In this document: positions 4,314-21,678 of the stretch, piece after piece
How the letters are laid out: the number at the start of each line of letters is the position of its first letter
Numbering within the stretch: position 1 is the stretch's first letter
Assembly (NCBI GenBank): GCA_013201395.1
Contig: JABMJD010000005.1
Coordinates: 24,381 to 88,380 of the forward strand
Source: Candidatus Syntrophopropionicum ammoniitolerans
Lineage (GTDB): Bacteria; Bacillota; Desulfotomaculia; Desulfotomaculales; Pelotomaculaceae
Direction of reading: 5' to 3'
DNA: 64,000 bases
The notes under the pieces: generated by a model
Seen by the model: the letters and a program-made list of their open reading frames with translations, nothing else
Told to the model about the DNA's origin: nothing
Databases searched by the model: none
Position numbers and translations under genes: made by a program

Positions 4314-4380
4314 ATATTAACATCATTTCAGCAGTAAAGTGAAATATGCGTTTACGATGGGATTGATTGCTGTGGCTTAT
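4314..4380 (-). promoter_or_regulatory. Island promoter/operator element, copy 1 (upstream of yqeB)
   Basis: Minus strand: ATAAGCCACAGCAATCAATCCCATCGTAAACGCATAT-TTCACT-18 nt-TAATAT, with a TGn extended -10. Confidence 0.75.
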
Positions 4381-4440
4381 TAATTTGCCAAATAGACCCG
4401 TTATCCGGCAAAATCCTGTTTATATTAGTATTATTCCCAA

Positions 4441-5592
4441 TTAAGACACCCTGGTCCTGAGGCGTTCGATTACTTCCGGCATTAGCTTGAGAAACTCTTC
4501 CACATCCTCTTCTGTATTGCTCCTGCCCAGGGACAAACGAAGTGAGCCGTAGGCAATCTGATGGGGAATACCCATAGCCAAAAGCACATGGGAAGCACTT
4601 ACGGTACCGGCAGTACAGGCAGAACCACTTGATGCTGCCACTCCATGCATGTCCAAATTCAAAAGCATAGCCCCGCCATCTATAAATTCAAATACAAAAT
4701 TGGCATTGTTGGGCAGACGTATGGTAGGGTGTCCAGCCAGCCGAACATGACTAATTCCCTCGGTAACTCCCTTTATTAGTTTGTCCCGCAATCCAGCCAG
4801 ACGCGCACTTTCCTTTTCCATATCACCGGCAGCCAATTCAACTGCTTTTCCCATAGCCACTATACCCGGGACATTTTCGGTGCCTGGCCTATGCTTGCGT
4901 TCCTGTCCACCACCATAATTATAGGGGCGCCAGTTAATACCTTTTCTAATATAAAGCGCCCCGATCCCTTTTGGCGCATAGATTTTGTGGCCGGAAATAG
5001 AAAGCAAATCTGCCTTTAGGTCATTTACGTTAACTGGTATTTTGCCAAAGCTCTGTACCGCATCTGTATGAAAAAGGATATTTCTTTCCCTGGCAATATC
5101 CCCTATTTCCTGTATAGGTTGGATTGTTCCCACTTCATTATTAGCATGCATTATTGAAATGAATATAGTGTCGTCTCTTATTGCGTCAGCCACCACCTGA
5201 GGGCTAACCATGCCGTAGCCGTCCACCTGTAAAAGGGTTACCTCATATCCCTCCTTTTCCAGGGATTTGCAAGTGTCAAGAACCGCATGATGTTCTATAG
5301 AAGAGGTAATAATATGATTTCCCTTTTCCCTATTGGCGTATACTGCTCCCTTAATAGCCAGGTGATCAGCCTCTGTGCCGCCGCTGGTAAAAACCACTTC
5401 CTCTTTTTTAGCCCCTATGTTTTCCGCCACCTTCACCCTGGCCCCTTCAATGGCCTTTTTAGCCGTCCGGCCAAAAGAGTGAAGGCTTGAAGGGTTGCCG
5501 AATTTACCGGTAAGATACCCCATCATTTCTTCAGCAACATCCGGGTGGACAGGCGTTGTGGCACTATGATCAAAGTAAATTTTGCCCATCAT
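4441..5592 (-). CDS. nifS: Cysteine desulfurase (NifS/IscS group I)
   Basis: IYFDHSATTP, FTSGGTE, HTDAVQ, SGHK (PLP lysine) and SSGSACT (catalytic Cys). The start is trimmed to the ATG after GGAGG. Confidence 0.93.
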   Translation of the reverse strand: MMGKIYFDHSATTPVHPDVAEEMMGYLTGKFGNPSSLHSFGRTAKKAIEGARVKVAENIGAKKEEVVFTSGGTEADHLAIKGAVYANREKGNHIITSSIEHHAVLDTCKSLEKEGYEVTLLQVDGYGMVSPQVVADAIRDDTIFISIMHANNEVGTIQPIQEIGDIARERNILFHTDAVQSFGKIPVNVNDLKADLLSISGHKIYAPKGIGALYIRKGINWRPYNYGGGQERKHRPGTENVPGIVAMGKAVELAAGDMEKESARLAGLRDKLIKGVTEGISHVRLAGHPTIRLPNNANFVFEFIDGGAMLLNLDMHGVAASSGSACTAGTVSASHVLLAMGIPHQIAYGSLRLSLGRSNTEEDVEEFLKLMPEVIERLRTRVS

Positions 5593-5789
5593 AATCCTCC
5601 TAGTTTTCTGCATAGTTCTACCCCCAGCATACCGGTCGGATATGTAGGGGATTATGTTAGCATCTTCCCTTTGAGAAAGCCAACGCCGTTTGAGATAAAT
5701 CAAGACCACCCGCACTGCAGCGGGTGGCTTCTTCCAGCCTGTATATTCAACACATCGGTACTGCTACCGATAGGGTAGTCCATATTCAG

Positions 5790-6938
5790 CTATTGGTTGT
5801 TCTGAAAAATCTCCTTGAAAGCTGCCACCGGTTCAATAAACACCTCCAGGGTGCCCCCACAGGACATACCCTCAGCAGCCGCAACATCTGCAGTCATTGA
5901 TATCTTATGCACATAAGGTTCTGCATCATCTATTACATCTAAGGCCTGAACACGCACCTCTGACTCACCACAACAGCCACCGCCAATTGTTCCCACAGTG
6001 CGTCCGTCCCTGTATACAAGCATCCTTGCCCCTGCCTTGCGTGGTGTTGAACCTTTCGTTTTATAAATTGTTGCCAGTGCAGCAGGTGTATCCTCAATCG
6101 CCGCCCTGATTGCCTCTTGCAAGGCATCCTTATCAGCAGCAACGGGAATTTCACTATCATTTACACCGTTTTTGCTTGCACAGCTGTCTTCCACACAAAC
6201 TAGAGGCGCTGCACTACCACCTCTACGATCCTTGATCATTTCTGCTGCTATGCATACAGCGATTTCAGCCGGTGTTTGCGCACCCAGATCCAGGCCAATC
6301 GGCATATGCACCTGTTCAATTCTTTTCATCTCAATACCATCTTCCATCAACTGTTCCCTAATTGCTTTTACCTTACGCCTGCTCCCAATCATCCCCAGGT
6401 AGGCCACGGGGTACCTGACTACCTTACGTAAACAGTCCATGTCGTTAACATGTCCCCTGGTGGCAATTACAATACTGCTAGCAGGTCCCAGTTTAACATG
6501 ATCTTCTATTTCGTCAAAACTGCAACAGATACTTTTATAGACTCCCTCAAATCTTTCGGGGGAGGTAAAGTCAGGTCGATCATCTACAACCGTAACACGA
6601 TAGCCAAGTAAGTGTCCAATGTTCGCCAAAGGCTGGGCAATATGCCCCCCTCCAAAAATAATTAGTTCCGGCGTCTCCAAACAGGGGTCCATCATCACGG
6701 TTGCTTTTTGCTCCGGGGAGTTCGGATTAGCCATGTCTGCGACTAGAAACATACCGCCCTTCCGGCCTTCTTCTATCAATCGAACTACCTGCTCTTCCAA
6801 CCAGGGTAGCTGCAGGCTTCCCCTAATTTCACTGCTATCTTCAGTTAGCATTATTTTTGCACCCAGCAATTTTTTGTCTAGGTTCTTTTGTCCTATTATC
6901 GTCACAAATGTATTTCCCTGTTGTAGGTTTATTTCCAC
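5790..6938 (-). CDS. xdhC: XdhC/CoxI family Mo-enzyme maturation factor
   Basis: IFGGGHIAQPLA, YLGMIGSRRK, PIGLDLGAQTPAEIAVCI, KGSTPRKAGARM and CGGTLEVFIEP; GTG start. Confidence 0.9.
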   Translation of the reverse strand: MEINLQQGNTFVTIIGQKNLDKKLLGAKIMLTEDSSEIRGSLQLPWLEEQVVRLIEEGRKGGMFLVADMANPNSPEQKATVMMDPCLETPELIIFGGGHIAQPLANIGHLLGYRVTVVDDRPDFTSPERFEGVYKSICCSFDEIEDHVKLGPASSIVIATRGHVNDMDCLRKVVRYPVAYLGMIGSRRKVKAIREQLMEDGIEMKRIEQVHMPIGLDLGAQTPAEIAVCIAAEMIKDRRGGSAAPLVCVEDSCASKNGVNDSEIPVAADKDALQEAIRAAIEDTPAALATIYKTKGSTPRKAGARMLVYRDGRTVGTIGGGCCGESEVRVQALDVIDDAEPYVHKISMTADVAAAEGMSCGGTLEVFIEPVAAFKEIFQNNQ

Positions 6939-7370
6939 ATTCCTTACCCCCTCTTGGACAACGTGATACTCTGATACAATTATGATACTCGCACTCCATA
7001 CACGCCCTGTACAATCCTTCATCAGCCAGGACAATAATATACCTACCGTTTATCCATTTATCTGCCAACAACCGAGACAACAACAATTCAAGAATAATTA
7101 TCTAGGAATACATACCACACCTGCAAAACATTGCTCCCCTTCAGAGCATACTCATTCAATCTATGCAAACCCTGCGCTTCTTCTATATATTACCACATGT
7201 TCCCTTGGCTCTTGCAAGCCTTTACTCTTCTCCGTTACCACTCAAGATTCTCATAACCTTCAGGTTTATAATTCTCGACATTATTCTACATAATATTTTA
7301 TGCCTTGTCTAGCCCTCACTTTTGCCAGACCTAGCTTACTTTGCCTTTACTTATAATAGTTGATTAAGAT

Positions 7371-7398
7371 ATGAGAGACGATATATATCGTCTCTCAT
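7371..7398. terminator. Perfect 28-bp palindrome downstream of the Mo-enzyme operon (terminator or RNA-stabilising hairpin)
   Basis: ATGAGAGACGATAT/ATATCGTCTCTCAT; there is no strong U-tract. Confidence 0.5.
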
Positions 7399-7438
7399 GT
7401 CTACTATCCTAGCTTACCTTAGATTTTTGGATCCCGCT

Positions 7439-9784
7439 TTATTTCCCGTTTTCCTTCTTTTCTTTCAATGCACGCCATACCTTTTCATAGGTAATCGGCA
7501 GTTCGGTCATGCTGATTCCTATGGCATCATAAATGGCGTTGGCAACTGCGCCCATAGTCGGTGTCGTTGCACCTTCCCCAACCTCTTTACATCCATAAGG
7601 TCCGTTGGGCTCATAGCTCTCATCCAATGTTAAGGACTCAACAGGCGGCATATCAAGAGCTGTCGGCAGACGATACTCTGCAAAGTTACCGTTCAACAGA
7701 GCACCTGTTTTCGGGTCAAATTTAACTTCTTCCCAAATGGTCTCGCCGATACCCATGTAGAAGGCGCCGTGAACCTGGCCGTGGAACAGTTTCGGGTTAA
7801 TGATTGTGCCGCTGTCGTGCACGTCCCAGGTATCCACACATTCAATTTCGCCAGTTTCCATGTCAACCTTAACCTCTGCTACCTGAGTTGCGCTACTGTA
7901 TGCTGGGGATGTACCAACTGCTGCACCCTTGTGGTTGCCACCCAGTTTGCCGGGGTGATACCAGCCGCGGCCAACAAGTGCACCGTGGTCAACAAAGTAT
8001 TTACGTGCTACTTCTTCAAATGTTAGTTTAACAGCCGGTTCCTGCTTAATATACACAATACCGTCTTTGCATTCCAGATCTTCAGTGGTCAATGGGCCAT
8101 CCAGGTAACCAAAACCTTCTTTGACCCGTCCGGATGCTTTCAGCATTTCACAAGCTTTAGCAAGAATTTTTTTCTTGACTTCTGCACCCGCTCTAGTGAC
8201 AGCCCAACCAGCCATCAATGTCTGTCTGCTGGCATAGGCGCCAAAGTCCAAAGTGGAAAGGTCGGTATCCCCTGTTACCATTTGGCACTGCTCATAAGGA
8301 TATCCCATTGCTTCTGCTGCCATCTGCATCAGCACTGTGCTACTGCCCTGACCGATGTCAATTGCGTTGGAATACACATAGGCTCTGGTACCATCGTCAA
8401 ACACCTTCACCATGCCGACAGAGTGTGGATAGTCAGTCCGGTACTGGCAGAAGCCTGCACCAGTTACAAACCCACCGTTACCAACACCAATTCCTCTACC
8501 GGGGCCCATTTTACCTCTCTTCTCGGTCCAACCGGAAGCGTCACGGGCCATTCTGTTGGCGGCAAGCAGGTTATAGGACTTAACCTCATAACCGGCTGTG
8601 GTAATACTATTACCCTTACGGGCGTTAATCAGACGCATGTCGATCGGGTCTACACCAATTGCTTCTCCAACAAGGTCGATATGGCTTTCAAAGGCAAATC
8701 TTGGCTGCGGCTGTCCGTGGCCCCTTTGTGCTCCACAGGGAGGTAGGGTTGTGACTATACGCTGGCAGTCAAATTTGTAGTTCTCAATGGGGTACAATAT
8801 GCCCAGCAGGGAGCCGGCATAGTAAGAGGATGCAATGCCCAGTCCGGTATAGGCGCCGCCCTCTAGAACACAATCAAATTTGTGAGCCACTATCTTACCT
8901 TTTTTGTCCACGCCGGTGGTCAGGGTCATGGTCATGGGGTGACGGCCGTGGCCATTCAGGAAGGTCTCATAGTGGTCGAACCAAACCTTCACTGGTCTCC
9001 CAGTAAGCTTGGCCAGGATTATTGCGGCAAATTCTGTACCGCAGGTGTCCAGTTTACCACCAAACCCGGCGCCAACATTAACCGCACGCACAGTCAGGTT
9101 ACCCATTTTCATGCCCAGAACCCTGGCTATGTGATACTGGTCATAGTGCACTGATTGTGTAGTGGTATACAAAAATGCCTTATCTGCTTCCCAATAGGCT
9201 GCAGCACAATGGTTTTCGATGAAGGCGTGATAGGCGCGCTGCCCTTGGAATTTGTCAGTGCGCACATAATATGCGTCTTTTAATGCCTCATCCACATCAC
9301 CGAAATGGTGGTGAATTTCAGTGTTAACGTTGCCGGGATACTCATCAAAGATTTGCGGTGCCCCTTCTTTTACAGCATCCTGCCAGGTGAGGACCGGCTC
9401 TAGTTCTTCATATTCTACCTTGATCAGTTTTAGTGCTTTATAGCAGGTTTCCTCGTCTATCGCACACACCGCACCGATTTTATCACCATGATATCTTACT
9501 TTGTCAATACAGAAAATATTTTCGTCGAAGCGAGCAGGGCTTAACCCATATTTCATGGATGGAACATCTTTTGCCGTGATAACCGCCACTACGCCGTCGA
9601 GTTTTTCTGCTTCAGAGGTATCTATACTCTTAATGCGTCCGTGAGCTATTGTGCTGCGGATCAGCTTACCATAGAGCATACCTGGGAATTTTAAGTCAGC
9701 TACATATTGCGCGTGTCCAGTTGTTTTTCCATATGAGTCATTCCTGTCAACGCTGTGTCCTACATATGAATAATTTTCTTTCAC
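7439..9784 (-). CDS. Xanthine-oxidase-family molybdopterin-binding large subunit, most similar to 4-hydroxybenzoyl-CoA reductase alpha (HcrA-like)
   Basis: GAGFGGK, PPCGAQRGHG, DIGQGSST, GAAVGTSPAYSSATQVAEV and GPYGCKEVGEG. PPCGAxRGHG and the GAAVG/GSAIG segment are HcrA-like. Probable GTG start at 9784. Confidence 0.85.
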   Translation of the reverse strand: MKENYSYVGHSVDRNDSYGKTTGHAQYVADLKFPGMLYGKLIRSTIAHGRIKSIDTSEAEKLDGVVAVITAKDVPSMKYGLSPARFDENIFCIDKVRYHGDKIGAVCAIDEETCYKALKLIKVEYEELEPVLTWQDAVKEGAPQIFDEYPGNVNTEIHHHFGDVDEALKDAYYVRTDKFQGQRAYHAFIENHCAAAYWEADKAFLYTTTQSVHYDQYHIARVLGMKMGNLTVRAVNVGAGFGGKLDTCGTEFAAIILAKLTGRPVKVWFDHYETFLNGHGRHPMTMTLTTGVDKKGKIVAHKFDCVLEGGAYTGLGIASSYYAGSLLGILYPIENYKFDCQRIVTTLPPCGAQRGHGQPQPRFAFESHIDLVGEAIGVDPIDMRLINARKGNSITTAGYEVKSYNLLAANRMARDASGWTEKRGKMGPGRGIGVGNGGFVTGAGFCQYRTDYPHSVGMVKVFDDGTRAYVYSNAIDIGQGSSTVLMQMAAEAMGYPYEQCQMVTGDTDLSTLDFGAYASRQTLMAGWAVTRAGAEVKKKILAKACEMLKASGRVKEGFGYLDGPLTTEDLECKDGIVYIKQEPAVKLTFEEVARKYFVDHGALVGRGWYHPGKLGGNHKGAAVGTSPAYSSATQVAEVKVDMETGEIECVDTWDVHDSGTIINPKLFHGQVHGAFYMGIGETIWEEVKFDPKTGALLNGNFAEYRLPTALDMPPVESLTLDESYEPNGPYGCKEVGEGATTPTMGAVANAIYDAIGISMTELPITYEKVWRALKEKKENGK

Positions 9785-9806
9785 TACGCTCACCCTCTTC
9801 CTTTCC

Positions 9807-10310
9807 TTAGAGTTCTTTAGCCGCATCTAATACGGCCGCAACAATGTTCACATAACCTGTGCAGCGACACAGGTTACCTGCTATAGCTTCACGTACATCG
9901 TGGTCTGTGGGATTGGGGTTCTCATTTAGCAGCGCTCTGGATGACACAATCATGCCAGATGTACAAAAACCACACTGGAATGCTGCGTGCTCAACGAATT
10001 TTTCCTGCACAATGTCCAGGTCTTCCCCGTCTTGAATACCTTCAGCAGTAGTAATCTCATGCCCATCACAATCCATAGCCAACACCAGGCAGGAGTTAAC
10101 CGGCTTGCCATCCATCATTACTGTGCAGCATCCACAGTCTCCGAGCTCGCAACCTCTTTTAGTACCGGTTAAATCGAGATCTTCCCGCAGGAAATTTACC
10201 AGCAGTGTATTTGCTTTAATTACTTTTGTATATTCGCTACCATTAACGCCTATGGTGACCGCATAGCGTTTGATTCCTTTTTTATCTACAACAAAGCTAG
10301 ACATTTTCAC
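9807..10310 (-). CDS. 2x[2Fe-2S] small subunit (CoxS/HcrC type)
   Basis: GTKRGCELGDCGCCTV...NSC and QCGFCTSG...NLCRCTGY. Confidence 0.95.
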   Translation of the reverse strand: MKMSSFVVDKKGIKRYAVTIGVNGSEYTKVIKANTLLVNFLREDLDLTGTKRGCELGDCGCCTVMMDGKPVNSCLVLAMDCDGHEITTAEGIQDGEDLDIVQEKFVEHAAFQCGFCTSGMIVSSRALLNENPNPTDHDVREAIAGNLCRCTGYVNIVAAVLDAAKEL

Positions 10311-10324
10311 CTCTCCTTTCCTTT

Positions 10325-11194
10325 CTATACGTGTCCCTCGTCAACAGCCTTGCGCAGTGCACGCTTCGTGAATATACGCACCAGGTCTGTGCGGTATTCG
10401 GCAGATGCCCTAATATCGGATATCGGCTTGCATTCACCAGAAGCAATTACACCGGCTTCTGCTAACACATCGTCAGTTACCTTTTTACCTTTTAGGAATT
10501 CTTCAGTTTTCTTCGCCCTTACAGGAGTAGCTGCAACAGCACCCAATGCTACTCTCGCATCTTTTATAACACCGTTTTCCACCTGAACAGCAACAGCCAC
10601 GCCTACCACAGCCAATGCGCCAGACTTACGCAGACCAAATTTAATGTAGTTACTACCCGTCATTTTCTGTTCAGGGATAAATATTTCTGTAAGCACCTCG
10701 TCATTTGCCAGAACAGTCTTGCCAGGACCAGCAAATACGTCTTCCATAGCCAGGGTCCGCTCACCCTTAGCGCCAACCAATTTAGCAGTTGCGTTAAGAG
10801 CAATTAAAACAGGCGGCAAGTCAGCTGACGGCACAGCACTTACTATATTGCCGGCAATTGTACCCCTGTTGCGCACCTGGTTATTGGCCATTTGTCTGGC
10901 CGCATTTGCTACGGAAGCAAATTTCTCCTTTAATACATCTGACTTAACCAGGTCGTTATGTGTACACAATGCGCCTACGCTAACGCCTTTGCCTGCAACG
11001 TATTCAACTTTTTTCAGCTGCTCCAGATTTTTAACTGAAACAACCACTTCCGGAGCAAGCAATTCATTTTTCATCTTGACTACCATGTCTGTCCCGCCGG
11101 CAAGCACCTTAGCCTTTTCCCCAAATTGTGCTAAAAGCTGGCATGCCTCCGCGACGCTTTCCGGTGCATAATACTCGAAATCTGGTAGATACAC
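10325..11194 (-). CDS. FAD-binding medium subunit (CoxM/CutM type, without a [4Fe-4S] insertion)
   Basis: LAGGTD, QVRNRGTIAGNI and SDIRASAEYR. Only scattered Cys residues, and no Cys-rich loop after the GN motif. Confidence 0.93.
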   Translation of the reverse strand: MYLPDFEYYAPESVAEACQLLAQFGEKAKVLAGGTDMVVKMKNELLAPEVVVSVKNLEQLKKVEYVAGKGVSVGALCTHNDLVKSDVLKEKFASVANAARQMANNQVRNRGTIAGNIVSAVPSADLPPVLIALNATAKLVGAKGERTLAMEDVFAGPGKTVLANDEVLTEIFIPEQKMTGSNYIKFGLRKSGALAVVGVAVAVQVENGVIKDARVALGAVAATPVRAKKTEEFLKGKKVTDDVLAEAGVIASGECKPISDIRASAEYRTDLVRIFTKRALRKAVDEGHV

Positions 11195-11440
11195 GTTTTC
11201 TCCTCCTCTTTTTTGGTAATAATCTTCTGCACACCAAACAAACCCCGTCTCTTCTGCTTAGCTTCTTGCATCACCATCCTCTTTAAATTTGAAGCTTTCC
11301 TGTTACCAGCTATTCAGATCCTAGACAATGACTAACTCATTAACTGCTCTCAAACTGCCTTCAATACCTTAAAACATCTTGAAAATTCAGAACCTAATGA
11401 CTGGGACATACTAACCCTATACGATTTCTTTACCGGTTTT

Positions 11441-11507
11441 ATCTTATCACCCAGCAAAGAACAAAGTGAAATATGTGTTCGCGATTGGATTTATTAGTTA
11501 TGCCTAT
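11441..11507 (-). promoter_or_regulatory. Island promoter/operator element, copy 2 (upstream of the Mo-enzyme operon)
   Basis: Minus strand: ATAGGCATAACTAATAAATCCAATCGCGAACACATAT-TTCACT-18 nt-TAAGAT, with TGn. Confidence 0.75.
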
Positions 11508-12172
11508 AAGTTTGCCGCTGCAGCTGTGTTAGATAATACAAATAAAAGCCTGGGTTAACAGGACTTACATGAACATTGGAACAAAAAAAAGAGAGTGTCT
11601 TACCCCCCCCCTTAATTAAAGATGAATTGGTATATTTAAATGAAATGATTATATACCCAAAACCTGGCGCCTATCCTGCCCGTTAACCAGGCCACCTCCC
11701 GGTCGAACATGTCTCCTAGCAGATAGGCAGGCAAAAGAGAATTCATTGCGGCAACACTATAAAATAGCCATGCCCCTAACCAGGATTCATACATTATATC
11801 AATAAGTGCAATAGGCAAGATGTATTTATGGCGTCCTGTGAATAGTGATAAAATTAACATTGACATGTACTATGCTCACTTTATCTGCAATGGAATGGCA
11901 CGCATGCATTGGCCTGGCTAAAACTGCAAGGCTTAAACACGTTTACTAATTATTGTCCTACATATATAATTACATATATAAAAACTATAAAACGACAAAA
12001 TTTTCTGCCTAAAATGTAAATTGATTAGCCACTGACTGCCCAAAAGGCTAATAGGGGTCCAGTTAATAAAGCCTTTTGAACGGTGTTAAACATTCTTTAG
12101 AATGCTAACCTTTAAATAATATAGATATGTTTTTTTATTTTGGGAATTGAGCAAATAGAGGAGGGGTATACA

Positions 12173-13135
12173 TTGGAAATGCATCAGCTGGAATATGTCC
12201 TAGCTGTGGCAAAATTCCATAACTTCACACGTGCAGCAGAGGAAATAAAGATATCTCAATCCTCGCTTTCCCAGCAGATCAGTAAGCTGGAAAACGAACT
12301 AGGCACCAATTTGTTTGTTAGAACCACCCGGTCAGTTCACCTGACACCAGCCGGAGCAGAGTTTATTAAACATGCCCAACGGATCATGTCGGAAGTAAAG
12401 GAGGCAAGACGCAGCATACAGGATTATGTGTCTATGGTTAAAGGTGAACTTGCTTTTGGCACCATTCCTGTTATTGGCAGTTACAATGTACCCAACCTGT
12501 TAAAATCATTTCAGGATAACTACCCGGGGATAAAAATGCGCATTGTTGAAGAACAATGTGAGGATCTTTTATCAATGCTCCAATCTGCCAAAATTGACGT
12601 GGCTATGACACAGATGAGCAAAAATGACAATAATTTAAAATTTTACCCCCTTTTGTCCGACAGAATGGTGCTTGTGACAAGTAGCCGGCATCCTTTGGCT
12701 AATAAAGAATCAATAAACATAAATGAACTAAGAAACGAAAAATTGATTATGACACCCCGCACATCAGGCCATCATCATGATTTTTGTAGAGCCTGTGAGA
12801 TAGCAGGCTTCACTCCAAACATTGTCATAAAATGCTCAATTGTTAAAACAATGCTCAGTTTTGTACGCGAGGAGATTGGCATTACAGTACTTTCCTCCAA
12901 GGTAGCAGCTGCAGAAAAAGACCCCAGCATGAGAATTATAGAAATCACTCCTACCATACCAAGAAGAATTTCATTGGCTACGCGCAATACCTCTGACCCA
13001 CCACCGACGCTGAAGATGTTTTTAAAGTTTACTAATCAATGGGTAAAAACACAAAAGTCCAGGGAAGCAGCCAGGAAACACGTTGCCAGGGCATCTCTCA
13101 CATCACGCGATATAAGACTAATATATAGTCGCTAG
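12173..13135 (+). CDS. LysR family transcriptional regulator
   Basis: MEMHQLEYVLAVAKFHNFTRAAEEIKISQSSLSQQISKLENELGTNLFVRTTRSVHLTPAG; TTG start after GAGGAGG. Confidence 0.96.
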   Translation: MEMHQLEYVLAVAKFHNFTRAAEEIKISQSSLSQQISKLENELGTNLFVRTTRSVHLTPAGAEFIKHAQRIMSEVKEARRSIQDYVSMVKGELAFGTIPVIGSYNVPNLLKSFQDNYPGIKMRIVEEQCEDLLSMLQSAKIDVAMTQMSKNDNNLKFYPLLSDRMVLVTSSRHPLANKESININELRNEKLIMTPRTSGHHHDFCRACEIAGFTPNIVIKCSIVKTMLSFVREEIGITVLSSKVAAAEKDPSMRIIEITPTIPRRISLATRNTSDPPPTLKMFLKFTNQWVKTQKSREAARKHVARASLTSRDIRLIYSR

Positions 13136-13163
13136 TGCACGAGGCTAATTAGAAAAACTAATC

Positions 13164-13208
13164 AAAAGAACAAGCAAGGCAAAAAGAACAAGCCTTGCTT
13201 GTTCTTTT
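13164..13208. terminator. Bidirectional terminator 1 between lysR and the transporter gene
   Basis: 17-bp perfect stem AAAAGAACAAGCAAGGC / GCCTTGCTTGTTCTTTT. Confidence 0.8.
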
Positions 13209-13244
13209 TGAAAAAGCAAAATCAATACCAACAAATCAAACAAA

Positions 13245-13283
13245 TGAAAACTGCTATTTCCACTAGGGTAATAGCAGTTTTCA
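13245..13283. terminator. Hairpin / terminator 2 between the convergent genes
   Basis: TGAAAACTGCTATT / AATAGCAGTTTTCA. Confidence 0.6.
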
Positions 13284-13321
13284 ACCTAATTATGAAACTA
13301 CAATTGGTTAACTAATTATCT

Positions 13322-14755
13322 TTATTGGAACATGCCAATTGAAGTCCAGTATGGGATTGATATAGCTAGCGTAATCAGCACGGCCACACCATAAACCATA
13401 CCATACGTAGCACTTTGTCCGCTTGTCCAGGACCTCTTCTCGGCAATGGACTCTGCCACTAAAGCAAACATGTTTGTATAGGTTAGGAAGAAGCAGTTTG
13501 CTGCCATTATGAAGAGGGGTACCCAAACCAAAGGATTAATGCCAAAGTTGTTTGCTATTTCAGGCAGTATCGGTATAAGGATAGTCATGGTGGGTATAAA
13601 TACTGCCACATCAAAGAACCTCAAAATGAAGAACAGTATTATGATGGAGTAGCACAACATCCAGGGGCTTGATGTCAACGGCGCGATTAGGGGTACTAAA
13701 ACACCTACCAACCATTTGTTTACACCAGTTACACCAAAAACGCCGCCAATACTCATGGCCACACCAATAAACATGATTAAATCCCAGCTGATACCTGTAC
13801 TGATTTCCGGCCCTTTGACAACGCCGAAAGCTGTCAGCAAAAACAGTCCAGCCAGCACTGTAGCCCCGTCCGGTATACCATGCATTTTGTTGGTAAAAAA
13901 CATAAGGAAGCAGACTGTAAGAACTATCGCACTAACAATTTGATCCTTATTCCATGCACCTAGTTTAGTATAAGCCTCTTGAAAATACTCTTTTTTCAAG
14001 GTTATCGGTTCACTTGGTTTTAGGGCAAAATAACCACCGACAATGAGGATCAGGGTCAACACCAGGGCAGGGATTAACATGACCTGCAGGTAAGAACTAA
14101 AAGTAAGCATTCCTTTCAAATCAGGAATAGCTTCCATCATACCCAAAATAATTGGGCCATGCAGTGATCCGGTAAGCCAACCTGTTCCTGGTATAACAGC
14201 CATGGCCCAGGCGGTTAGCAGTAACAAAGCACTACCTTTTGATTTAAGCTCCAGCTGGCAGGCCTCAATAACACTTACAGCAATGGGCACAATGATTACG
14301 CAACGCACTGTAATTGAAGGGGTGAGGGCTGAAAGGGCCAACCCAATGATGACAAAGGCCACAATTAGCATCGGGTAGGAAGGGTTGAACATTTTCATCA
14401 CTAAAAAACCAATTCTCTTACCCAGCCCGGTTTTGATCAGTACAAATCCGAAGAACAGCGCTGGAATTAGAGTCCACAGGGCACCACTGGTAAATCCTGA
14501 AAAAACATTGGGTGCAGGAACCTTAATCGCCAATGTAAACAGCAGGAAGAAAAACCCTGCAACGGATCTGGGAATATTCAGCGGCGCGAATATCCACATA
14601 CCGATAGTCACAATTAAGGCAAGTAACACCAAATGACCTTCCGGCGGCAAATCCGGCACCCAGGGCTTTGCTAGTCCAACATAAAGGGCCAGAATGAGCA
14701 TTACTAGAAAAAATGCATCTGTAACTTTAAATTTTAAACCATTTTCTGTCGTCAT
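13322..14755 (-). CDS. DASS/SLC13 family carboxylate-anion transporter
   Basis: Many TM segments; FSGFTSGALWTLI, KTGLGKRI, LTPSITVR and ISWDLIMFIG. Confidence 0.85.
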   Translation of the reverse strand: MTTENGLKFKVTDAFFLVMLILALYVGLAKPWVPDLPPEGHLVLLALIVTIGMWIFAPLNIPRSVAGFFFLLFTLAIKVPAPNVFSGFTSGALWTLIPALFFGFVLIKTGLGKRIGFLVMKMFNPSYPMLIVAFVIIGLALSALTPSITVRCVIIVPIAVSVIEACQLELKSKGSALLLLTAWAMAVIPGTGWLTGSLHGPIILGMMEAIPDLKGMLTFSSYLQVMLIPALVLTLILIVGGYFALKPSEPITLKKEYFQEAYTKLGAWNKDQIVSAIVLTVCFLMFFTNKMHGIPDGATVLAGLFLLTAFGVVKGPEISTGISWDLIMFIGVAMSIGGVFGVTGVNKWLVGVLVPLIAPLTSSPWMLCYSIIILFFILRFFDVAVFIPTMTILIPILPEIANNFGINPLVWVPLFIMAANCFFLTYTNMFALVAESIAEKRSWTSGQSATYGMVYGVAVLITLAISIPYWTSIGMFQ

Positions 14756-14953
14756 GAAATATTTTCCTCCTCTCAGGTTTTGGAAAATTTACCGACTTTT
14801 AAATCCTTTTTTTATAAATTCAAAATGAATCCTACTGCCTGTCTTTGTGCACTTTCTTACTGCCTGTGTGCAGCATGGGGCGCTTACGCGCCCCCACTTT
14901 TCACACACCTAGAGCCGGAGCCTAAGGTACAATGCTGGTAATGCTATATGGCC

Positions 14954-16522
14954 CTAGTCGCCGTTCTTCACCAACATCTCCCTGAGCTTACCCCACTTGG
15001 GTTGGAATATTTCTTTCGGCATTTCTTTCAAATCGGGAGAAATCACAGGCTCAAATTCTATTTGCGAAAGAACGTCTTTCTCCAGATCCACTCCTGGCGC
15101 AATTTCAGTCAGCACCACTTTGCCGTCCTTCAGCACGAATACGGCACGTTCGGTAACATAGATTACTTCCTGGCCTCTTTCGGCGGAGTATTTACCACTG
15201 AAGGTGACGTGTTCGCACTCTTTAACAAACTTTTTGATTTTGCCTTCCTTCAAAATCTTAAGTTTGCCGTCAGATACCTCATATTCTGCACCACTGGCAG
15301 TCATGGTACCACAGTACACAACCTTTTTAGCAGATGAGGATATATTAACATAGCCGCCCGGGCCTACTACTTTCGGTCCAAACTTGCTGACGTTGGTATT
15401 TCCCTCTTCATCAATTTGGGCTGCCCCCAGGAAGCATATATCCAGCCCACCGCCATCATAAAAGTCAAACATGCTCGGGTGATCAACAATGCAGTCAGCG
15501 TTAATCGCTGCCGGGAAGTCCATGCCTTGTGCCGGGATACCGCCAAAGGCGCCTAACTCGATGGTGAGTGACATCAAGTCAGCCACGTTTTCATCTGCGG
15601 CAGTATTGGAAACTGTATCCGGCATACCGATGCCCATGTTGACAATAGCGCCTGTTCTCAATTCCATAGCTGCCCTACGGCCAATAATCTTACGCTCGTC
15701 AAGAGGAATAGGTGTAACCTCAGAAAGAGGCTTTCTAATACGCCCATCAAATGCAGGCTCATTTAATGTAACCCTGGTCTGCAGGTGGTTTTCTGGTTTA
15801 GCAACCACAATGTAGTCCACCAGAGCGGCAGGAACCTTCACGTTTTTGGGGTTAAGTGTCCTGGCCTGGGCTATATATTTAACCTGTGCAAATACAATAC
15901 CACCGTTTCTCTTTGCTGCCATTGCTATATGGAGCGCTTCTAGGAACAGCGGCTCCTCATCCATAGTCATATTGCCTTCCTCGTCGCAGGTGGTACCGCG
16001 GATCATAGCCACATCAATGTCGAAGGGCTTATAATACAGGTATTCCTCTCCCTGGAAGTTAACTAATTCAACCATATCGTCTTTGGTGATATCGTTGATT
16101 TTACCACCCTGCCGGCGGGGGTCAACATAGGTACCCAATCCTACCTTTGTAAGCACACCTGGTTTGCCGCCGGCGATTTGCCGGTATAAATGCGTCAGAA
16201 CGCCCTGCGGGAACAAGTGGCACTCGCATTTATTGCTCAGAACCAGTGCCCCCAGCATAGGTGCCTCACCAATATGTCCGGCAATATGCTTTCTAACCAT
16301 TCCCTCGTGACCTACGTGACTCATTCCCCTGGTTTTCCAGTCACCACAACCGCAACTGTGGGTGTTAAAAAGATCCCTGGGATGCCCGGTTTCCAAAAAA
16401 CTTTTCTCAAGCGCTATAGCCAGCTCTTCTGGAAAGCCGCACAAACCAGCAGTGATCCATGCTACAGTTGAACCATCTTTCACCAATGGGCCAACTTGCT
16501 CCGGGGTAATAATTTTGGACAT
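14954..16522 (-). CDS. Acyl-CoA:acetate/3-ketoacid CoA-transferase, fused family I (YdiF/Pct-like)
   Basis: FPQGVLTHLYRQIAGGKPGVLTKVGLGTYVDPR, NMGIGMP, TIELGAFGG, FYDGGGLD and GPGGYVNI. Confidence 0.92.
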   Translation of the reverse strand: MSKIITPEQVGPLVKDGSTVAWITAGLCGFPEELAIALEKSFLETGHPRDLFNTHSCGCGDWKTRGMSHVGHEGMVRKHIAGHIGEAPMLGALVLSNKCECHLFPQGVLTHLYRQIAGGKPGVLTKVGLGTYVDPRRQGGKINDITKDDMVELVNFQGEEYLYYKPFDIDVAMIRGTTCDEEGNMTMDEEPLFLEALHIAMAAKRNGGIVFAQVKYIAQARTLNPKNVKVPAALVDYIVVAKPENHLQTRVTLNEPAFDGRIRKPLSEVTPIPLDERKIIGRRAAMELRTGAIVNMGIGMPDTVSNTAADENVADLMSLTIELGAFGGIPAQGMDFPAAINADCIVDHPSMFDFYDGGGLDICFLGAAQIDEEGNTNVSKFGPKVVGPGGYVNISSSAKKVVYCGTMTASGAEYEVSDGKLKILKEGKIKKFVKECEHVTFSGKYSAERGQEVIYVTERAVFVLKDGKVVLTEIAPGVDLEKDVLSQIEFEPVISPDLKEMPKEIFQPKWGKLREMLVKNGD

Positions 16523-16729
16523 CGTCTCTTCTCCCTTCAAGTTCTAATCTCGAATCCTAATCTCCCTAAACCAAAAAAACTGTAATGAATCCCAAACCAC
16601 TGCAAAAAACAGGATAACTCTAAGCTGTCTCCCTCTTACAGCTTAAAAAACTTCACCTCTTTCCCATATGTATTGAATATATATCAACTTCTGCAACATG
16701 CAGAATTCCACTTCCCTTATTCAGGTTTA

Positions 16730-16796
16730 ATATTACCACCCGTTAACAAGCAAAGAGAAATATGCGTTTACGATGACATTGATTAGCAATGCCTAT
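16730..16796 (-). promoter_or_regulatory. Island promoter/operator element, copy 3 (upstream of CoA-transferase/DASS)
   Basis: Minus strand: ATAGGCATTGCTAATCAATGTCATCGTAAACGCATAT-TTCTCT-18 nt-TAATAT, with TGn. Confidence 0.75.
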
Positions 16797-16849
16797 AAAT
16801 ATTGCGTTCTTAACTGCACCGGCAGCAGCTGCAGGCGGGAAAATAAATC

Positions 16850-18187
16850 CTAGAATGTACGTTTATTACTTTTGCGCCAAATACCCATTTCCCCGGCGCT
16901 TTTAATCAACTCCTCACGGAAATCCGGGTGAGCAATAGAAACCAGGGCTTCTGCTCTTTGCCAAAGGGTTTTACCCTTCAGGGAGGCAATTCCATATTCA
17001 GTTACTATACTGGGGGCCAGGCCACGCTGAATAGAAACCACTGAACCCGGCTCCAGTACAGGCCGGATTCGGGAAAAAACCCTACCGGCACTGCTATAGG
17101 TCGAAGCCATACATATGAAACCTCTTCCCCCTTTTGACCGAAAGGAGCCCTCGGCAAAACAAATAGAGCCTCCGGTACCACTGATTTGCCGAGTGCCGGA
17201 TGACTCAGAATTTATCTGACCATAAAGGTCCACATCTATACAACTGTTAATAGATATGAAATTATCCAATTGACCGATTATGTAGGGATCGTTGGTATAA
17301 TTTACGGGCATAAACACACACATTGGATTTCCGTTGATGAAGTCGTATGTCCTCTGGGTGCCGAGAGCGATGGTGGCAACTATTTTATGTCTGTCCATAC
17401 TCTTCCTTGCCCCTGTTACCCGGCCCTTTTCGACCATATCCACCATAGAGTCCACAAACATTTCAGTATGAATTCCCAGGTCCTTTAAATCAGACCCCGC
17501 GATCATTTCCCCCACCGCATTGGGCATGCCGCCAATACCTAGTTGCAGACAGCAACCGTCCGACAACTGTTCAATAATTAACGAGGCGATCCTCCTATCA
17601 GTATCATTTGGCTCGGATGGAGCTATTTCGGAAATCGGATAGTCAGCCTCGACAATATAATCGACCCGGGAAATATGGATCCCATTTTCTTGTCCCAGAC
17701 AACATGGCATGTTGGGGTTAACTTCCAATATGATTATTTTACCTGCCTCACACATGGCCATAGTGTGCGAAATCTGAGGTCCAAAATTAAAGCAACCATG
17801 TCTATCCATAGGAGCAACTGGGATCATTACCACATCAACATCAATATAACTACGGTAGTATTCGGGTAGTTCGCTATAGACCAGGGGGATATAAAAACAA
17901 CGTCCCTGATCACCCAGCTTGCGATCAGAGGCACTAAAATGCCAGTTATTATATATAAAATGCAGGCCCGCCGGATCAGCTTTCACTATCTCTGGGATAC
18001 CGGCCACGCGCGTAGTACAACGTATTTTTACATCCCTGAGCTCATCTTTTCTGGCAGCCAGGGCCTTGTCCAGAGCCACCACACACCCGGAAAAAGAACC
18101 ATATTCAACCCAATCTCCCGATTTTACTGCCTCAACCGCCTCAGAAGGTGCAACGAGTTTTTGTTTATACATTTCTGCATAATCCAT
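16850..18187 (-). CDS. Acetyl-CoA hydrolase/transferase family CoA-transferase (butyryl-CoA:acetate / 4-hydroxybutyrate CoA-transferase-like)
   Basis: [46 protein letters not shown] and ISGTGG. Confidence 0.9.
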
Positions 18188-18261
18188 AACAATTCATTCA
18201 GCCCTATATTGAGATAATAGAGTAAAGGCCGATATCAACACAGATAACGGCCTTTCATTTT

Positions 18262-19677
18262 TCATACTCTAGCGGTAGCTTTCTCGGCTCCCTTTGTTGA
18301 TACTTCTCCTGTATCTACTATTGAGGGCCTGTTATCACGGAAACGCTTTGCCTTAAGCTCGTAAACCGGTAGCGTACCCGGGGTCAACAACTCAACCTCC
18401 ATGCTGATCATGAAAGACAGTTGCAGCTTCTGAGCTATCTTTTTGCGCAGTTCATCCCACAACCCGGGATCCACATCATGCTTCGGCTCCACTCGCACAG
18501 TTATCCTATCCATCCCGCCTTCTGTCTTAGTTGCAATATACTCGTAACTGTCAGAACATTCCGATATTCCCCGGATCACGTTTTCTATCCCCGCAACTGA
18601 CACACACACCCCACGTATCTTAATTATGTCCCCTACCCTGCCCATAAATCCTTTCATTACGCTCAGGGTTCGGCCACAAGCACATGTTGCGCCCGCTTCT
18701 ATGCCCTTGACCAGGTCACCTGTTTCAAACCTAATACAGGGATGGGTTTTGCTTATTAGATCAGTGACCACCAGCTTCCCAGATTCACCCGGGGAAACCG
18801 GCTCATCTGTCTCAGGGTCCAACACCTCACAATATGCCAAATCCTCATTTATATGCCCTACCCCTTCTTCACATAGCCAGGCCAGGTAATGTGTTTCCTG
18901 AGTACCGCAATAATCAAATATCTCTGCCCCCCAGGCTTCTTCCAAACGTACACCAGTGTTTGGTATGGACATCTTACCGGGCTCACCAGCGGTTAAAATT
19001 ACCCTTATCCCAAGAGTCCGAGCATCAATACCGTTCTCCTCAGCAACTTTTGCCAGGTGCAAAAGATAGGTCGGCGTACCCATTAGTACCGTTATACCCA
19101 GTTTTCTGATCATTGTCAGCCGCATCAGACTACTCCAAATACCGCCTGGGATAACCAGGGAACCTATCAAATGCTCACAACAGTCATAGGCAGCAGCCAA
19201 CCCGAGGAAAGGGGTGAAACCAAAGGCAGCATGCACAACATCTTCCTTCCTAATTCCCGCGGCCCACACAGCACGAGCTGCACCGGCGCAATAAACCCCG
19301 AAGTAATCCTCCTCTGTAAATGGTATGATCACCGGTTCTCCAGTGGTCCCCGAGGTCATACCGATGCGAATGAAAGGCCCCCTGCCTGGGACACTCATCA
19401 TTCCATAGGGAGGATCCTGCTCTTGACTTAATCTTATTTCTTCTTTATGAAGAATCGGTATACGCCCGATATCGTCAAGCGTTCTCAATAATGCCGGGCA
19501 AAAATTGCTTTCTTCCCATTTTTGGCGGTAAAACGGGCTCTTTTCCCAAAGGTAATTTATTTGCTCACGTAACCTAGCCAACTGAAGTTTCTTCATCTCT
19601 TTATGCGGCATCGTTTCTGCAGGGGACCAATACTTGTAACCAACAGCAGCGTGTTGCTGAATACCGTTCATAAACAT
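18262..19677 (-). CDS. Phenylacetate-CoA ligase (PaaK)-like aryl-CoA ligase
   Basis: TSGTTGEP P-loop, GTPTY, YCGTQE, IRFETGDL and GRVGDIIKIRGVCV. Confidence 0.85.
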   Translation of the reverse strand: MFMNGIQQHAAVGYKYWSPAETMPHKEMKKLQLARLREQINYLWEKSPFYRQKWEESNFCPALLRTLDDIGRIPILHKEEIRLSQEQDPPYGMMSVPGRGPFIRIGMTSGTTGEPVIIPFTEEDYFGVYCAGAARAVWAAGIRKEDVVHAAFGFTPFLGLAAAYDCCEHLIGSLVIPGGIWSSLMRLTMIRKLGITVLMGTPTYLLHLAKVAEENGIDARTLGIRVILTAGEPGKMSIPNTGVRLEEAWGAEIFDYCGTQETHYLAWLCEEGVGHINEDLAYCEVLDPETDEPVSPGESGKLVVTDLISKTHPCIRFETGDLVKGIEAGATCACGRTLSVMKGFMGRVGDIIKIRGVCVSVAGIENVIRGISECSDSYEYIATKTEGGMDRITVRVEPKHDVDPGLWDELRKKIAQKLQLSFMISMEVELLTPGTLPVYELKAKRFRDNRPSIVDTGEVSTKGAEKATARV

Positions 19678-19929
19678 AATAAAATAACATCTCTCTTTCT
19701 CTTACCAGACTATTTTGCCAGGAGTTATACCAAGCACAATTGGTGTTTTTGGAGCACCATCCTCTGGCTTGCTTAGTAGTAGAATAGAGCATTTCAACAA
19801 TACATGGTGTTTGTCACTATACCCGTGTCAACTCATATGTAATTGGCTGTACCCAGTTGTCCTGATCCACCACCACCATAATTGTCTGCAAGATATAGAA
19901 ATTCCGATTCGTAAATTTATCCTATTTTC

Positions 19930-19995
19930 ATTATCATTCACAACGCGGGCAAAGTGAAATATGCGTTCTCAATCGGATTAATAGGTTTTACTAAT
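19930..19995 (-). promoter_or_regulatory. Island promoter/operator element, copy 4 (upstream of the PaaK-like ligase)
   Basis: Minus strand: ATTAGTAAAACCTATTAATCCGATTGAGAACGCATAT-TTCACT-17 nt-GATAAT. Confidence 0.7.
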
Positions 19996-20178
19996 AAATA
20001 CGGTTACCTTGTGTCTAAAACACAAGACCAAGCCACCAGGGCTTAAAATATAAAAAAAGTTGGATCCTAAATGTCCCAACTTTTTACCTGTTCCACAATA
20101 TACCATTGCCCTGGTATTTGAATAATTTTTATGAACACGTCCACATCTTTTTAGGGAAAATAAATTGCCCATTCCTAT

Positions 20179-20373
20179 TTAACACGATGAATAATAGAGA
20201 CGAATTAAATTAAAGTCCTTTCTCTCCTTGTTTTTATTTTCAAGCGTTTTTATGGCGTATTTTAGATTATCTAAAAATTTTGTTACATTGATCCAACCAC
20301 CAAATTTTTCATCATAAACATACACAACCCTTGGGCTATCGTTTATTTCTCCGGATTTAAATGTATTAAGCAC
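20179..20373 (-). CDS. Small hypothetical protein (64 aa)
   Basis: GTG start after a G-rich RBS; AT-rich; no recognised motif. Confidence 0.4.
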   Translation of the reverse strand: MLNTFKSGEINDSPRVVYVYDEKFGGWINVTKFLDNLKYAIKTLENKNKERKDFNLIRLYYSSC

Positions 20374-20527
20374 TATTCTTCGCCCCCCGACTTTTGATAC
20401 TCCCTTTTATCCGGGGCAACCCAATAGTAAGCTGTCGTTACAATAAAGCCTCTGTAGCTCCCGGTAATACCTTCCAAAACTATTATGCTAACCTGCAAAC
20501 CACCAGTCCTAATAGGTTACACCACTT

Positions 20528-21508
20528 CTAATTGATTTCAAAAAATATCCGCCCATCAATCTCAATTTTTTTGACAACCCCAGTATGCTGTAGGTATTCA
20601 AGATGGGTAGCAGCCTCGCCAACAGCAAACACCTTTTGAGCAAGGGGGAACAAATCCCAGGATGATGGGGTGATATCCCAGGTCATCTTGCCGGCAACAT
20701 TGTAAGCATTCATCCGCCCATTCCCCAAAATTACTAGAACCTCCTCGAGCCTGGCTTGATGGTGCTCCTTTAGCTCACCAATTCTTTTGCTGATATCACG
20801 AATAAGGCTCTGGTGACCAGTGAGGACAAGCTCTATTTCTAAACGATTAATCTTATCAAGACTTTGCAGATAATGGCCCAGCGGGTTTTCAATATTCTTC
20901 TCAAAGGTTATATTTGGGGTGATATCATCAAGAATATGATCTCCCGAAATCAAAACCTTGCTATCGGGCTCATAAAGACATATATGTCCAGGTGTATGGC
21001 CAGGGGTTTCTATAATGGTAAACCTATAGTCACCAACCTCAACAACATCGTCCTCAGCCAGGATGGTGAAGATCTGTTCCTTACGTGCGCTAAACCTTCT
21101 ACCAGGGTGATTATGCATAGCAGTATGCAGATCTTCTATCGGAAAACCGTGCATACCGAACACTGCTCCAATTTCCTGCCAATAGTTAGTCGCACCCGCC
21201 ATAGCATTTACTATTTCAGAATCGATTCTTCCACAATATATTTTTGACTTTTCAGTGGCTACTTCCCCAGCAAGGCCACTGTGATCTGCATGTAGATGCG
21301 TAAGCAGAATATCGGTTTTTTCAAAAGCCACATCGAGGGCAGCAAGGCCATCAAACAGCGCCTTCCTGCTCTCCTCCCGGTTCCATCCGGTGTCAATCAA
21401 TAAATTTCGTTCCCGACCTTTAATCAGGTAGGAATTTGTAGCCCCAAGGGGGCTCCTGGGGAGAATAACTTCAATCTTGTAAATACCCGGCAGGATTTCT
21501 TGAACCAG
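20528..21508 (-). CDS. Metallo-beta-lactamase-fold hydrolase, probable CTG start
   Basis: THLHADHSGL, TPGHTPGH and SGDHIL. The frame stays open 108 nt upstream of the track start and reads (M)VQEILPGIYKIEVILPRSPLGATNSYLIKG. Confidence 0.88.
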   Translation of the reverse strand: MVQEILPGIYKIEVILPRSPLGATNSYLIKGRERNLLIDTGWNREESRKALFDGLAALDVAFEKTDILLTHLHADHSGLAGEVATEKSKIYCGRIDSEIVNAMAGATNYWQEIGAVFGMHGFPIEDLHTAMHNHPGRRFSARKEQIFTILAEDDVVEVGDYRFTIIETPGHTPGHICLYEPDSKVLISGDHILDDITPNITFEKNIENPLGHYLQSLDKINRLEIELVLTGHQSLIRDISKRIGELKEHHQARLEEVLVILGNGRMNAYNVAGKMTWDITPSSWDLFPLAQKVFAVGEAATHLEYLQHTGVVKKIEIDGRIFFEIN

Positions 21509-21612
21509 CTTTAGCGCCCCCCTAATTGGATTTTATCTAAAAATACCGCCACAAAAACCTGGATCCGGCAACTATGCCTTTCCCCACAATGCTGTTGTCA
21601 ATGTTGATTATT

Positions 21613-21678
21613 ATCTTACAACCCAAAAAAAACAAAGTGAAATATTTATTGACGATTACACTAATTAGCTGGGATTAT
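21613..21678 (-). promoter_or_regulatory. Island promoter/operator element, copy 5 (upstream of the MBL hydrolase)
   Basis: Minus strand: ATAATCCCAGCTAATTAGTGTAATCGTCAATAAATAT-TTCACT-17 nt-TAAGAT. Confidence 0.7.

Follow-up and report, generated by a model that had tools for sequence, protein, structure and literature searches.

Conserved promoter elements of LysR-type layout and their candidate regulator in a gene cluster of Candidatus Syntrophopropionicum ammoniitolerans

Do the similar elements that precede several transcription units in a gene cluster of Candidatus Syntrophopropionicum ammoniitolerans (Pelotomaculaceae) form the operators of a single regulon, and is the LysR-type protein encoded among them the factor that reads them? 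The DNA analysed here (the window) is a stretch of 64,000 nucleotides (nt) of contig JABMJD010000005.1 (positions 24,381 to 88,380, forward strand). A sequence-only reading of the window had described five elements of about 65 base pairs (bp) on the minus strand, each upstream of a unit, and had proposed that the product of the lysR gene at 12173-13135 activates all five. Alignment and genome scans confirmed the presence of the five elements at these places. They are real and conserved, and represent an ordinary kind of bacterial gene switch. As judged from sequence, each copy is probably a complete activator-dependent sigma-A promoter together with its operator, run by the neighbouring LysR protein encoded at 12173-13135. 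A description of this regulator or motif in Pelotomaculum was not found in the literature searched.

Five strong copies and their counterparts in relatives

All five copies are intergenic and each lies 5' of a gene on the same strand. The minus-strand elements align over 73 positions with a mean column identity of 78%, and the sole indel is one of 1-2 nt in the promoter spacer. Four further nt at the 5' end, which the earlier extents had omitted, complete a palindrome. The genome was searched with two models: R1, a sequence-only covariance model containing the five sites of this genome, and R2, built from 62 sites of other genomes without any sequence of this one. Site 1 (4312-4384; R1 64.9 and R2 53.4 bits) precedes yqeB-mocA; it begins 57 nt past the nifS stop codon and would therefore be an internal promoter. 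Site 2 (11439-11511; 71.2 and 65.7 bits) is found 5' of a molybdoenzyme operon that stands back to back with lysR. Site 3 (16728-16800; 71.5 and 63.5 bits) precedes the genes of a FadX-like coenzyme A (CoA)-transferase and a DASS transporter, site 4 (19930-19999; 58.1 and 45.5 bits) those of a PaaK-like CoA ligase and a CoA-transferase, and site 5 (21611-21682; 59.2 and 47.8 bits) the gene of an MBL-fold hydrolase.

The draft genome searched comprises 2.36 megabases (Mb) in 87 contigs and is ~91% complete. An nhmmer profile of the 56-nt cores returned the five copies at expectation values (E) of 3e-13 to 4e-10, the next best match having an E of 0.2. In the R1 scan the five copies scored 58-71 bits and the next match 20 bits. 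The same copies were again top-ranked by R2 (46-66 bits, E 9e-18 to 1e-11). A degenerate skeleton, ATTNAT-N11-ATNAAT-N3-AT-N11-ATTT with at most one mismatch, had seven matches in the window compared to 0.00 expected. Apart from the five copies, the 2.36-Mb draft contains no strong match to the motif.

In seven genera of one family the element is likewise located 5' of orthologous genes, in most cases beside a lysR orthologue. LysR orthologues with 64-99% identity adjoin motif-bearing clusters in other genomes of this family, and strong motif copies lie within a few kilobases (kb) of the lysR orthologue in 11/11 relatives whose lysR locus was examined. The orthologues of the same genes are preceded by the element even where LysR is just 55-85% identical. 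For the 62 relatives' sites, the first same-strand gene from a reference set was recorded within 1.6 kb. A matched gene, beginning 57-776 nt past the site, was present at 59 of them: most often fadX (13), followed by the FAD (flavin adenine dinucleotide) subunit and lysR (7 each), paaK (5), Amidohydro_2 and yqeB (4 each), MBL and orf625 (3 each), an FMN (flavin mononucleotide)-reductase-like gene, a dCache chemoreceptor and VdcC (2 each), plus singletons. Among the MBL orthologues, those in L013, L014, L042 and L045 bear a copy. The paaK orthologues in five relatives' loci carry copies with site 4's own peculiarities, GATTnAGAAC and GTGAATGATAAT. Since such promoter-specific quirks are kept by orthologous sites, the copies are old and maintained rather than recent.

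Further support is provided by a phylogenetic footprint. When the intergenic region between lysR and the FAD subunit gene was aligned across four genomes, 73% of the columns of site 2 were invariant compared to 4% in the adjacent 273 nt. The motif was present in 14/14 genomes with a LysR homologue, and in 0/6 near-complete (at least 98%) relatives without a LysR homologue (at E 1e-40) was it found at E 0.01 or better. An order-wide scan detected it in 12/24 genomes of the family and in 0/126 genomes of 19 other families.

Layout of the element

To describe the element, we used a position weight matrix of the 62 relatives' sites, with offsets given relative to a start site predicted from a -10 hexamer at -12 to -7. 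The matrix consensus is ATTaATAgGcagaacttATtAATnCAATCGtaAACacATATTTCACTTTnttcaTTtncgggTGgTAAnATAA. A 23-bp palindrome, ATTnATA-N9-TATnAAT, spans about -77 to -55 with its centre at about -66. Within it T6/A18 are invariant in 62/62 sites, giving the T-N11-A core, and so are A5/T19, while T3/A21, T2/A22 and A1/T23 are nearly invariant. A scan for dyad symmetry placed the best centre at position 12 (12.8 bits vs 4.4 for the next centre). With R2, matches to element positions 1-25 were obtained on the opposite strand too, a direct demonstration of the palindrome. A second and less symmetric site, AT-N11-AT (ATCGtaAACacATAT), extends from -51 to -37 with its centre at about -44. It contains the invariant pair T28/A40 (A27 T28 ... 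A40 T41), a second T-N11-A, is centred 22 bp or two helical turns 3' of the first centre, and ends 1 nt before the -35 hexamer TTCACT. This hexamer is weak, with 4/6 matches to TTGACA, and is separated from the -10 by an 18-nt spacer. The -10 is of the extended type, TGnTAAnAT, with TG at -15/-14 in 57/61 relatives' sites. In the window four of the five copies have this TG, one more than had been counted before; only site 5 is without it. The start sites predicted for the five copies, all on the minus strand, fall close to 4307, 11434, 16723, 19921 and 21606.

The variable positions of the dyad do not covary, Watson-Crick pairs being about as frequent as under independence, which fits half-sites read by a protein dimer and not a hairpin. 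LysR-type promoters combine a recognition site and an activation site built on T-N11-A (PMC11495319). On this basis the element has the standard LysR-type recognition-site/activation-site arrangement, as far as its sequence can tell. To call it a new operator motif, as had been done, was an overstatement, since what is seen is the standard LysR box in a lineage-specific form. Activation is favoured over repression by the position of the conserved block, all of which lies 5' of a poor -35. Other kinds of element were considered as well. A sigma-54 promoter was discarded on inspection, as the GG-N10-GC spacing does not occur in TTTCACTTTGC, and an RNA element or riboswitch was discarded because positions 1-26000 gave no Rfam match above chance and the dyad lacks covariation.

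The candidate regulator, weaker copies and competing explanations

The candidate activator is encoded by a full-length lysR gene (12173-13135, plus strand) with the Pfam domains HTH_1 and LysR_substrate, which is divergently oriented and 662 bp away from site 2. Its NCBIfam matches are GltC-, CynR-, CidR- and AlsR-like, all under the equivalog cut-offs; against the AlsR equivalog NF045775 it scores 164.6 bits (cut-off 430). The closest LysR record, from 'Peptococcaceae bacterium AS23ysBPME_176', is 99% identical. In seven relatives' loci clear lysR-upstream copies of the element (19-36 bits, R1) are found 205-340 nt 5' of lysR. A degenerate copy at 11785-11855 on the plus strand, ~310 nt 5' of lysR, aligns with them and is their position-homologue. 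It matches the skeleton with one mismatch and has an R2 score of 16.7 bits (E 4.5e-4 within the window, 0.0175 genome-wide). We regard it as a probable autoregulatory promoter of lysR, and a separate full copy at this gene would suggest positive feedback. Between this copy and lysR lies a sigma-A-like promoter, TTTACT-17-TATAAT (11942-11970, plus strand), which matches the consensus at 10/12 positions. Across four genomes, 70% of the columns of 11936-11975 are invariant vs ~20% in the flanks, and the block is possibly the basal lysR promoter, distinct from the copy at 11785-11855. An autoregulatory role had previously been assigned to a partial core, ATTGATTAG, at 12020-12028. The core is present, but the role did not hold: three matches were found compared to 0.87 expected, and 6/100 shuffles reach three. 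This half-site is at chance level and is not kept beyond the 99% relative, nor is it conserved in the relatives with 85% and 83% LysR identity.

With R2, five additional weaker sites were found in this genome, two in the window and three on other contigs, and each has a counterpart 5' of the orthologous gene in relatives. Apart from the degenerate copy at lysR, the window contains site 6 (409-480, plus strand; R1 20.4 and R2 36.2 bits, genome-wide E 1.4e-8), which matches the skeleton without mismatch and precedes orf625-azlCD. Orthologues of orf625 in three relatives bear a copy, and the order orf625-azlC-azlD is kept in one of them (G008, L047). On the other contigs, a site at C46:41194-41263 (minus strand; 31 bits) lies 5' of a second PaaK-like ligase gene and a site at C34:1243-1314 (plus strand; 28 bits) 5' of an Amidohydro_2 decarboxylase-like gene, Amidohydro_2 being the family of the reversible ortho-hydroxybenzoate decarboxylases. 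The third, a variant at C62:5809-5867 (plus strand; 22 bits), precedes the gene of a VdcC-type UbiD decarboxylase beside a LysR paralogue. The proposed five units therefore stand as members, but the limit to five does not, given the weaker copies at 409-480, at 11785-11855 and on the three other contigs.

The LysR paralogue on contig C62 (8588-9487) is 52% identical to the LysR at 12173-13135. In the winged helix-turn-helix (wHTH) region the two proteins hardly differ, and they share the recognition helix SQSSLSQQI. The neighbouring VdcC (C62:6109-7533), a UbiD-type hydroxyarylic acid decarboxylase, scores 684.9 bits with the VdcC model (cut-off 650), and its gene bears the variant motif (…GCTATC-N4-AACAACTATTTCATT…TGTTAAAAT) with an altered first dyad. 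Paralogue and VdcC are arranged alike in relatives (L022, L023, L025, L029, L031, L052). Together they look like a sister regulon, reminiscent of BsdA-bsdBCD. Several relatives have two or three LysR paralogues. Covariation between recognition helix and motif variant gave nothing usable, as orthologues and paralogues scarcely vary in the wHTH region. One relative with a complete genome of 3.03 Mb (L046; G021:C1:1606000-1622000) has an in-frame TAA in the gene of the linked LysR homologue (58%), around which four motif copies remain; this homologue could be decaying or could be rescued by a paralogue.

The reading as a LysR-type regulon is supported by the T-N11-A layout, by linkage to lysR in 11/11 relatives, by the orthologous targets, by the footprint and by the co-occurrence of motif and regulator, and all of the computational tests are in agreement with it. 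In the mechanism we propose, a tetramer of the regulator encoded at 12173-13135 would occupy both the palindrome and the proximal site. Binding of an effector would cause the regulator to shift on the proximal site, and RNA polymerase would be recruited. The effector would probably be the aromatic acid substrate or its CoA thioester. Judging by the genes present, a (hydroxy)aromatic acid or its CoA ester may be both substrate and effector. Indirect support comes from relatives such as Cryptanaerobacter, for which conversion of phenol and 4-hydroxybenzoate to benzoate has been reported (PMC5946492), and from the response of the B. subtilis regulator BsdA to phenolic acids (PMC5541019). The five strong promoters would drive expression of the MBL hydrolase, the PaaK-like ligase with its CoA-transferase, the FadX-like protein with the DASS transporter, the HcrA-like molybdoenzyme with XdhC and NifS, and YqeB with MocA. 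Weaker copies would add orf625-azlCD, lysR itself (positive feedback), the second PaaK-like ligase on C46 and the Amidohydro_2 gene on C34.

The regulon could be real and yet be read by another protein, either the C62 LysR paralogue or an unrelated factor encoded elsewhere. The near-identical wHTH region of this paralogue, the related motif variant 5' of the adjacent VdcC gene and the two or three LysR paralogues of several relatives would all be compatible with such a binder. We nevertheless consider it unlikely: strong sites lie within a few kb of the orthologue of the lysR at 12173-13135 in all 11 relatives examined, the paralogue-linked sites form a distinct variant with a different second half-site, and the T-N11-A dyad layout speaks against a factor outside the LysR family. 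That the LysR-type protein represses, or both represses and activates, with the effector relieving repression, seems quite improbable in view of the geometry, since the conserved block (-77 to -37) abuts the poor -35 and overlaps neither the -10 nor the start site, as expected for activation. Some LysR-type regulators, such as GltC, do repress or switch modes (PMC11495319), and the -10 with its TG might be strong enough for some activator-free transcription. Five highly similar copies on one strand within 17 kb might also be taken for the product of a recent duplication, for a small mobile repeat or for part of a transcribed RNA, and not for operators. This would leave the peculiarities of individual promoters, kept at orthologous sites across species, without explanation, and it is further contradicted by the lack of conservation in the flanks, by genome scans free of the scattered copies that a mobile repeat would leave, and by a fixed spacing to the TGnTAAnAT hexamer with no covariation in the dyad. 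An origin of this kind is highly improbable.

Several points weigh against activation of these promoters by the neighbouring LysR protein. Long 5' leaders are predicted, of 98-244 nt for this genome and, in relatives, with 57-776 nt up to the first matched gene, so that the true start site could be elsewhere. Owing to the weak -35, a generic sigma-70 scan finds only 1/5 copies. Generic sigma-70 and terminator scans were uninformative in general, with counts equal to the shuffled expectation. The lysR-upstream copy is weak in this genome (16.7 bits, R2). As the C62 paralogue has the same recognition helix, it too could bind, so that the neighbouring lysR need not encode the binder and there may be cross-talk. 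Target genes are inherited along with the regulator, which confounds its co-occurrence with the motif. The relatives' sites, moreover, are subject to ascertainment bias, having first been gathered with a model of the five sites of this genome.

Genes behind the sites and comparison with known systems

The unit of site 2 (4441-11194, minus strand) encodes an FAD subunit (10325-11194), a 2Fe-2S subunit (9807-10310), an HcrA-like molybdenum (Mo) subunit (7439-9826), an XdhC-like chaperone (5790-7034) and a NifS-type cysteine desulfurase (4441-5715). The FAD, 2Fe-2S and Mo subunits constitute an enzyme of the xanthine oxidase family. The best PDB match of the Mo subunit is 1rm6_A, the alpha subunit of 4-hydroxybenzoyl-CoA reductase (HcrA), with 462 bits vs 236 for the next. 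With the HcrA equivalog TIGR03194 it scores 861.9 bits, below the cut-off of 994.55. The FAD subunit of 289 amino acids (aa) aligns end to end with CutM/CoxM flavoproteins of 287 aa (171.6 bits), and its comparison with HcrB chains gave no match reaching E 1e-20. The subunit is thus CutM/CoxM-like and without the [4Fe-4S] insertion of HcrB. An aromatic acyl-CoA is thus the probable substrate of the enzyme, which nevertheless is not a bona fide HcrCAB, and its electron route probably differs from that of the Thauera 4-hydroxybenzoyl-CoA reductase.

The unit of site 1 (2685-4209, minus strand) consists of YqeB (3397-4209), a protein of selenium-dependent molybdenum cofactor maturation with 329.7 bits against TIGR03309 (above the 220-bit cut-off), and a MobA/MocA-like nucleotidyltransferase (2685-3272; Pfam NTP_transf_3). 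The presence of YqeB, NifS, XdhC and MocA in the candidate regulon suggests a labile, possibly selenium-containing Mo-cytosine-dinucleotide cofactor. A FadX-like family I CoA-transferase (14954-16540) and a DASS-family anion symporter (13322-14755) form the unit of site 3 (13322-16540, minus strand), which a terminator-like hairpin at 13180-13210 separates from the convergent lysR. The unit of site 4 (16850-19677, minus strand) encodes a PaaK-like aryl/acyl-CoA ligase (18262-19677) and a CoA-transferase resembling butyryl-CoA:acetate CoA-transferase (16850-18187). Behind site 5 lies an MBL-fold metallo-hydrolase gene (20528-21400, minus strand; Pfam Lactamase_B, NCBIfam Strvi_7410-like, under the cut-off), whose product is possibly a thioesterase or hydrolase. 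The probable unit of site 6 (625-2402, plus strand) comprises orf625 (118 aa, no family), an AzlC-like gene (1400-2086; Pfam AzlC) and a possible AzlD-like open reading frame (2052-2402).

Other features were observed in and around these units. The leaders at 16545-16722 and 11194-11434 (both minus strand), like the fadX and FAD leaders of relatives, contain a conserved Shine-Dalgarno-like block, GAGGTGA / GGAGGGTGATG, far 5' of the actual start codon. The fadX leader also has a weak AU-rich hairpin followed by a U-run (consensus energy -8.9 kcal/mol, covariation term unfavourable); it could be an mRNA stabiliser or attenuator. Antisense within the MBL gene, at 20567-20686 (plus strand), there is a match to the Rfam RT-3 RNA (25.6 bits vs a gathering score of 40.5, E 0.02), which is probably due to chance. 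Directly 5' of site 5, inside the catabolic cluster, lies a ParB/Noc-like gene (21850-22668, minus strand) with the domains HTH_ParB and ParB_N and a score of 168.5 bits with the Noc model (cut-off 315); no motif copy was found 5' of it. In relatives (loci L037 at G015:C2:124100-128800, L035/L036/L039/L041, L032:19183, L016:20488, L034 and L040) the motif is also located 5' of genes for a dCache methyl-accepting chemoreceptor, Amidohydro_2, an FMN-reductase-like protein with a Cys-rich tail, DUF169, NUDIX and a sensory [FeFe]-hydrogenase-like PAS protein. The chemoreceptor gene follows two tandem motif copies, and one relative's genome has two Amidohydro_2 genes in tandem.

The candidate regulon ties an HcrA-like molybdoenzyme and its XdhC, NifS, YqeB and MocA to two CoA-transferases, CoA ligases, a hydrolase and a transporter. 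For an anaerobic route of aromatic acids, this provides a set of candidate genes together with a candidate sensor. As a broader and tentative picture, which we hold to be possible rather than likely, these genes might belong to an undescribed, lineage-specific anaerobic pathway of syntrophic Pelotomaculaceae. In it, (hydroxy)aromatic acids would be activated by CoA-transferases or PaaK-like ligases and then be acted upon by a possibly selenium-dependent HcrA-like molybdoenzyme without the HcrB iron-sulfur loop, and the decarboxylases, chemoreceptor and transporters of relatives would be placed on the same switch. A small family of LysR paralogues with one recognition helix and one half-site would discriminate between promoters by the second half-site or activation site and autoregulate positively. 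The organisms are mostly uncultured or slow-growing syntrophs, for which few approaches besides a sequence-defined regulon can group co-acting genes. Together, the 73-bp element and its regulator also make a compact candidate inducible promoter. Mechanistically it would be a standard LysR-type switch, which leaves the understanding of such regulation unchanged; unusual are the number of tandem copies in the same orientation, the separate lysR copy and the small paralogue family with one recognition helix.

Canonical LysR-type activator promoters are those of the BenM/CatM, CbnR and CysB type, for which a 'sliding dimer' model is used. The element resembles them in its T-N11-A palindrome at about -65, in the weaker second T-N11-A about two turns 3' that reaches the -35, and in the regulator gene divergently placed beside a target operon. 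Unlike in the canonical systems, the half-sites are lineage-specific and AT-rich (ATTnATA / TATnAAT), and a single regulator would serve between five and ten distinct promoters, of which five stand in tandem and in the same orientation in a 17-kb cluster. Moreover, lysR seems to have its own complete and separately oriented copy instead of a shared divergent site, which suggests positive rather than the usual negative autoregulation. The operator of Bacillus subtilis AlsR at alsSD, attributed to work of Fradrich et al. in 2012, reportedly has its recognition site, TAAT-N11-ATTA, between about -76 and -58, besides an activation site of the form AT-N11-AT. The consensus found here contains TaAT-N11-ATtA at -75 to -57 together with AT-N11-AT. 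However, the LysR protein is not an AlsR orthologue, the second site (-51 to -37) is further upstream than is reported for AlsR, and the targets are aromatic/acyl-CoA genes and not those of acetoin synthesis.

Closer in function are two regulators of aromatic acid metabolism. In B. subtilis the LysR-type protein BsdA (YclA) activates bsdBCD, encoding a phenolic acid decarboxylase of the UbiD type, in response to phenolic acids (PMC5541019). LysR paralogues of the family described here likewise stand beside VdcC/BsdC-type decarboxylases, whose genes bear a variant of the motif; this is a feature of the paralogue and not of the lysR at 12173. DbdR of Thauera aromatica AR-1 is a LysR-type activator of anaerobic 3,5-dihydroxybenzoate degradation (PMC11495319), which acts on several promoters of the whole pathway and shows positive autoregulation on induction (PMC11495319; PMC8754645). 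The system proposed here differs from DbdR in that it belongs to another phylum, involves other enzymes and has an unrelated operator sequence.

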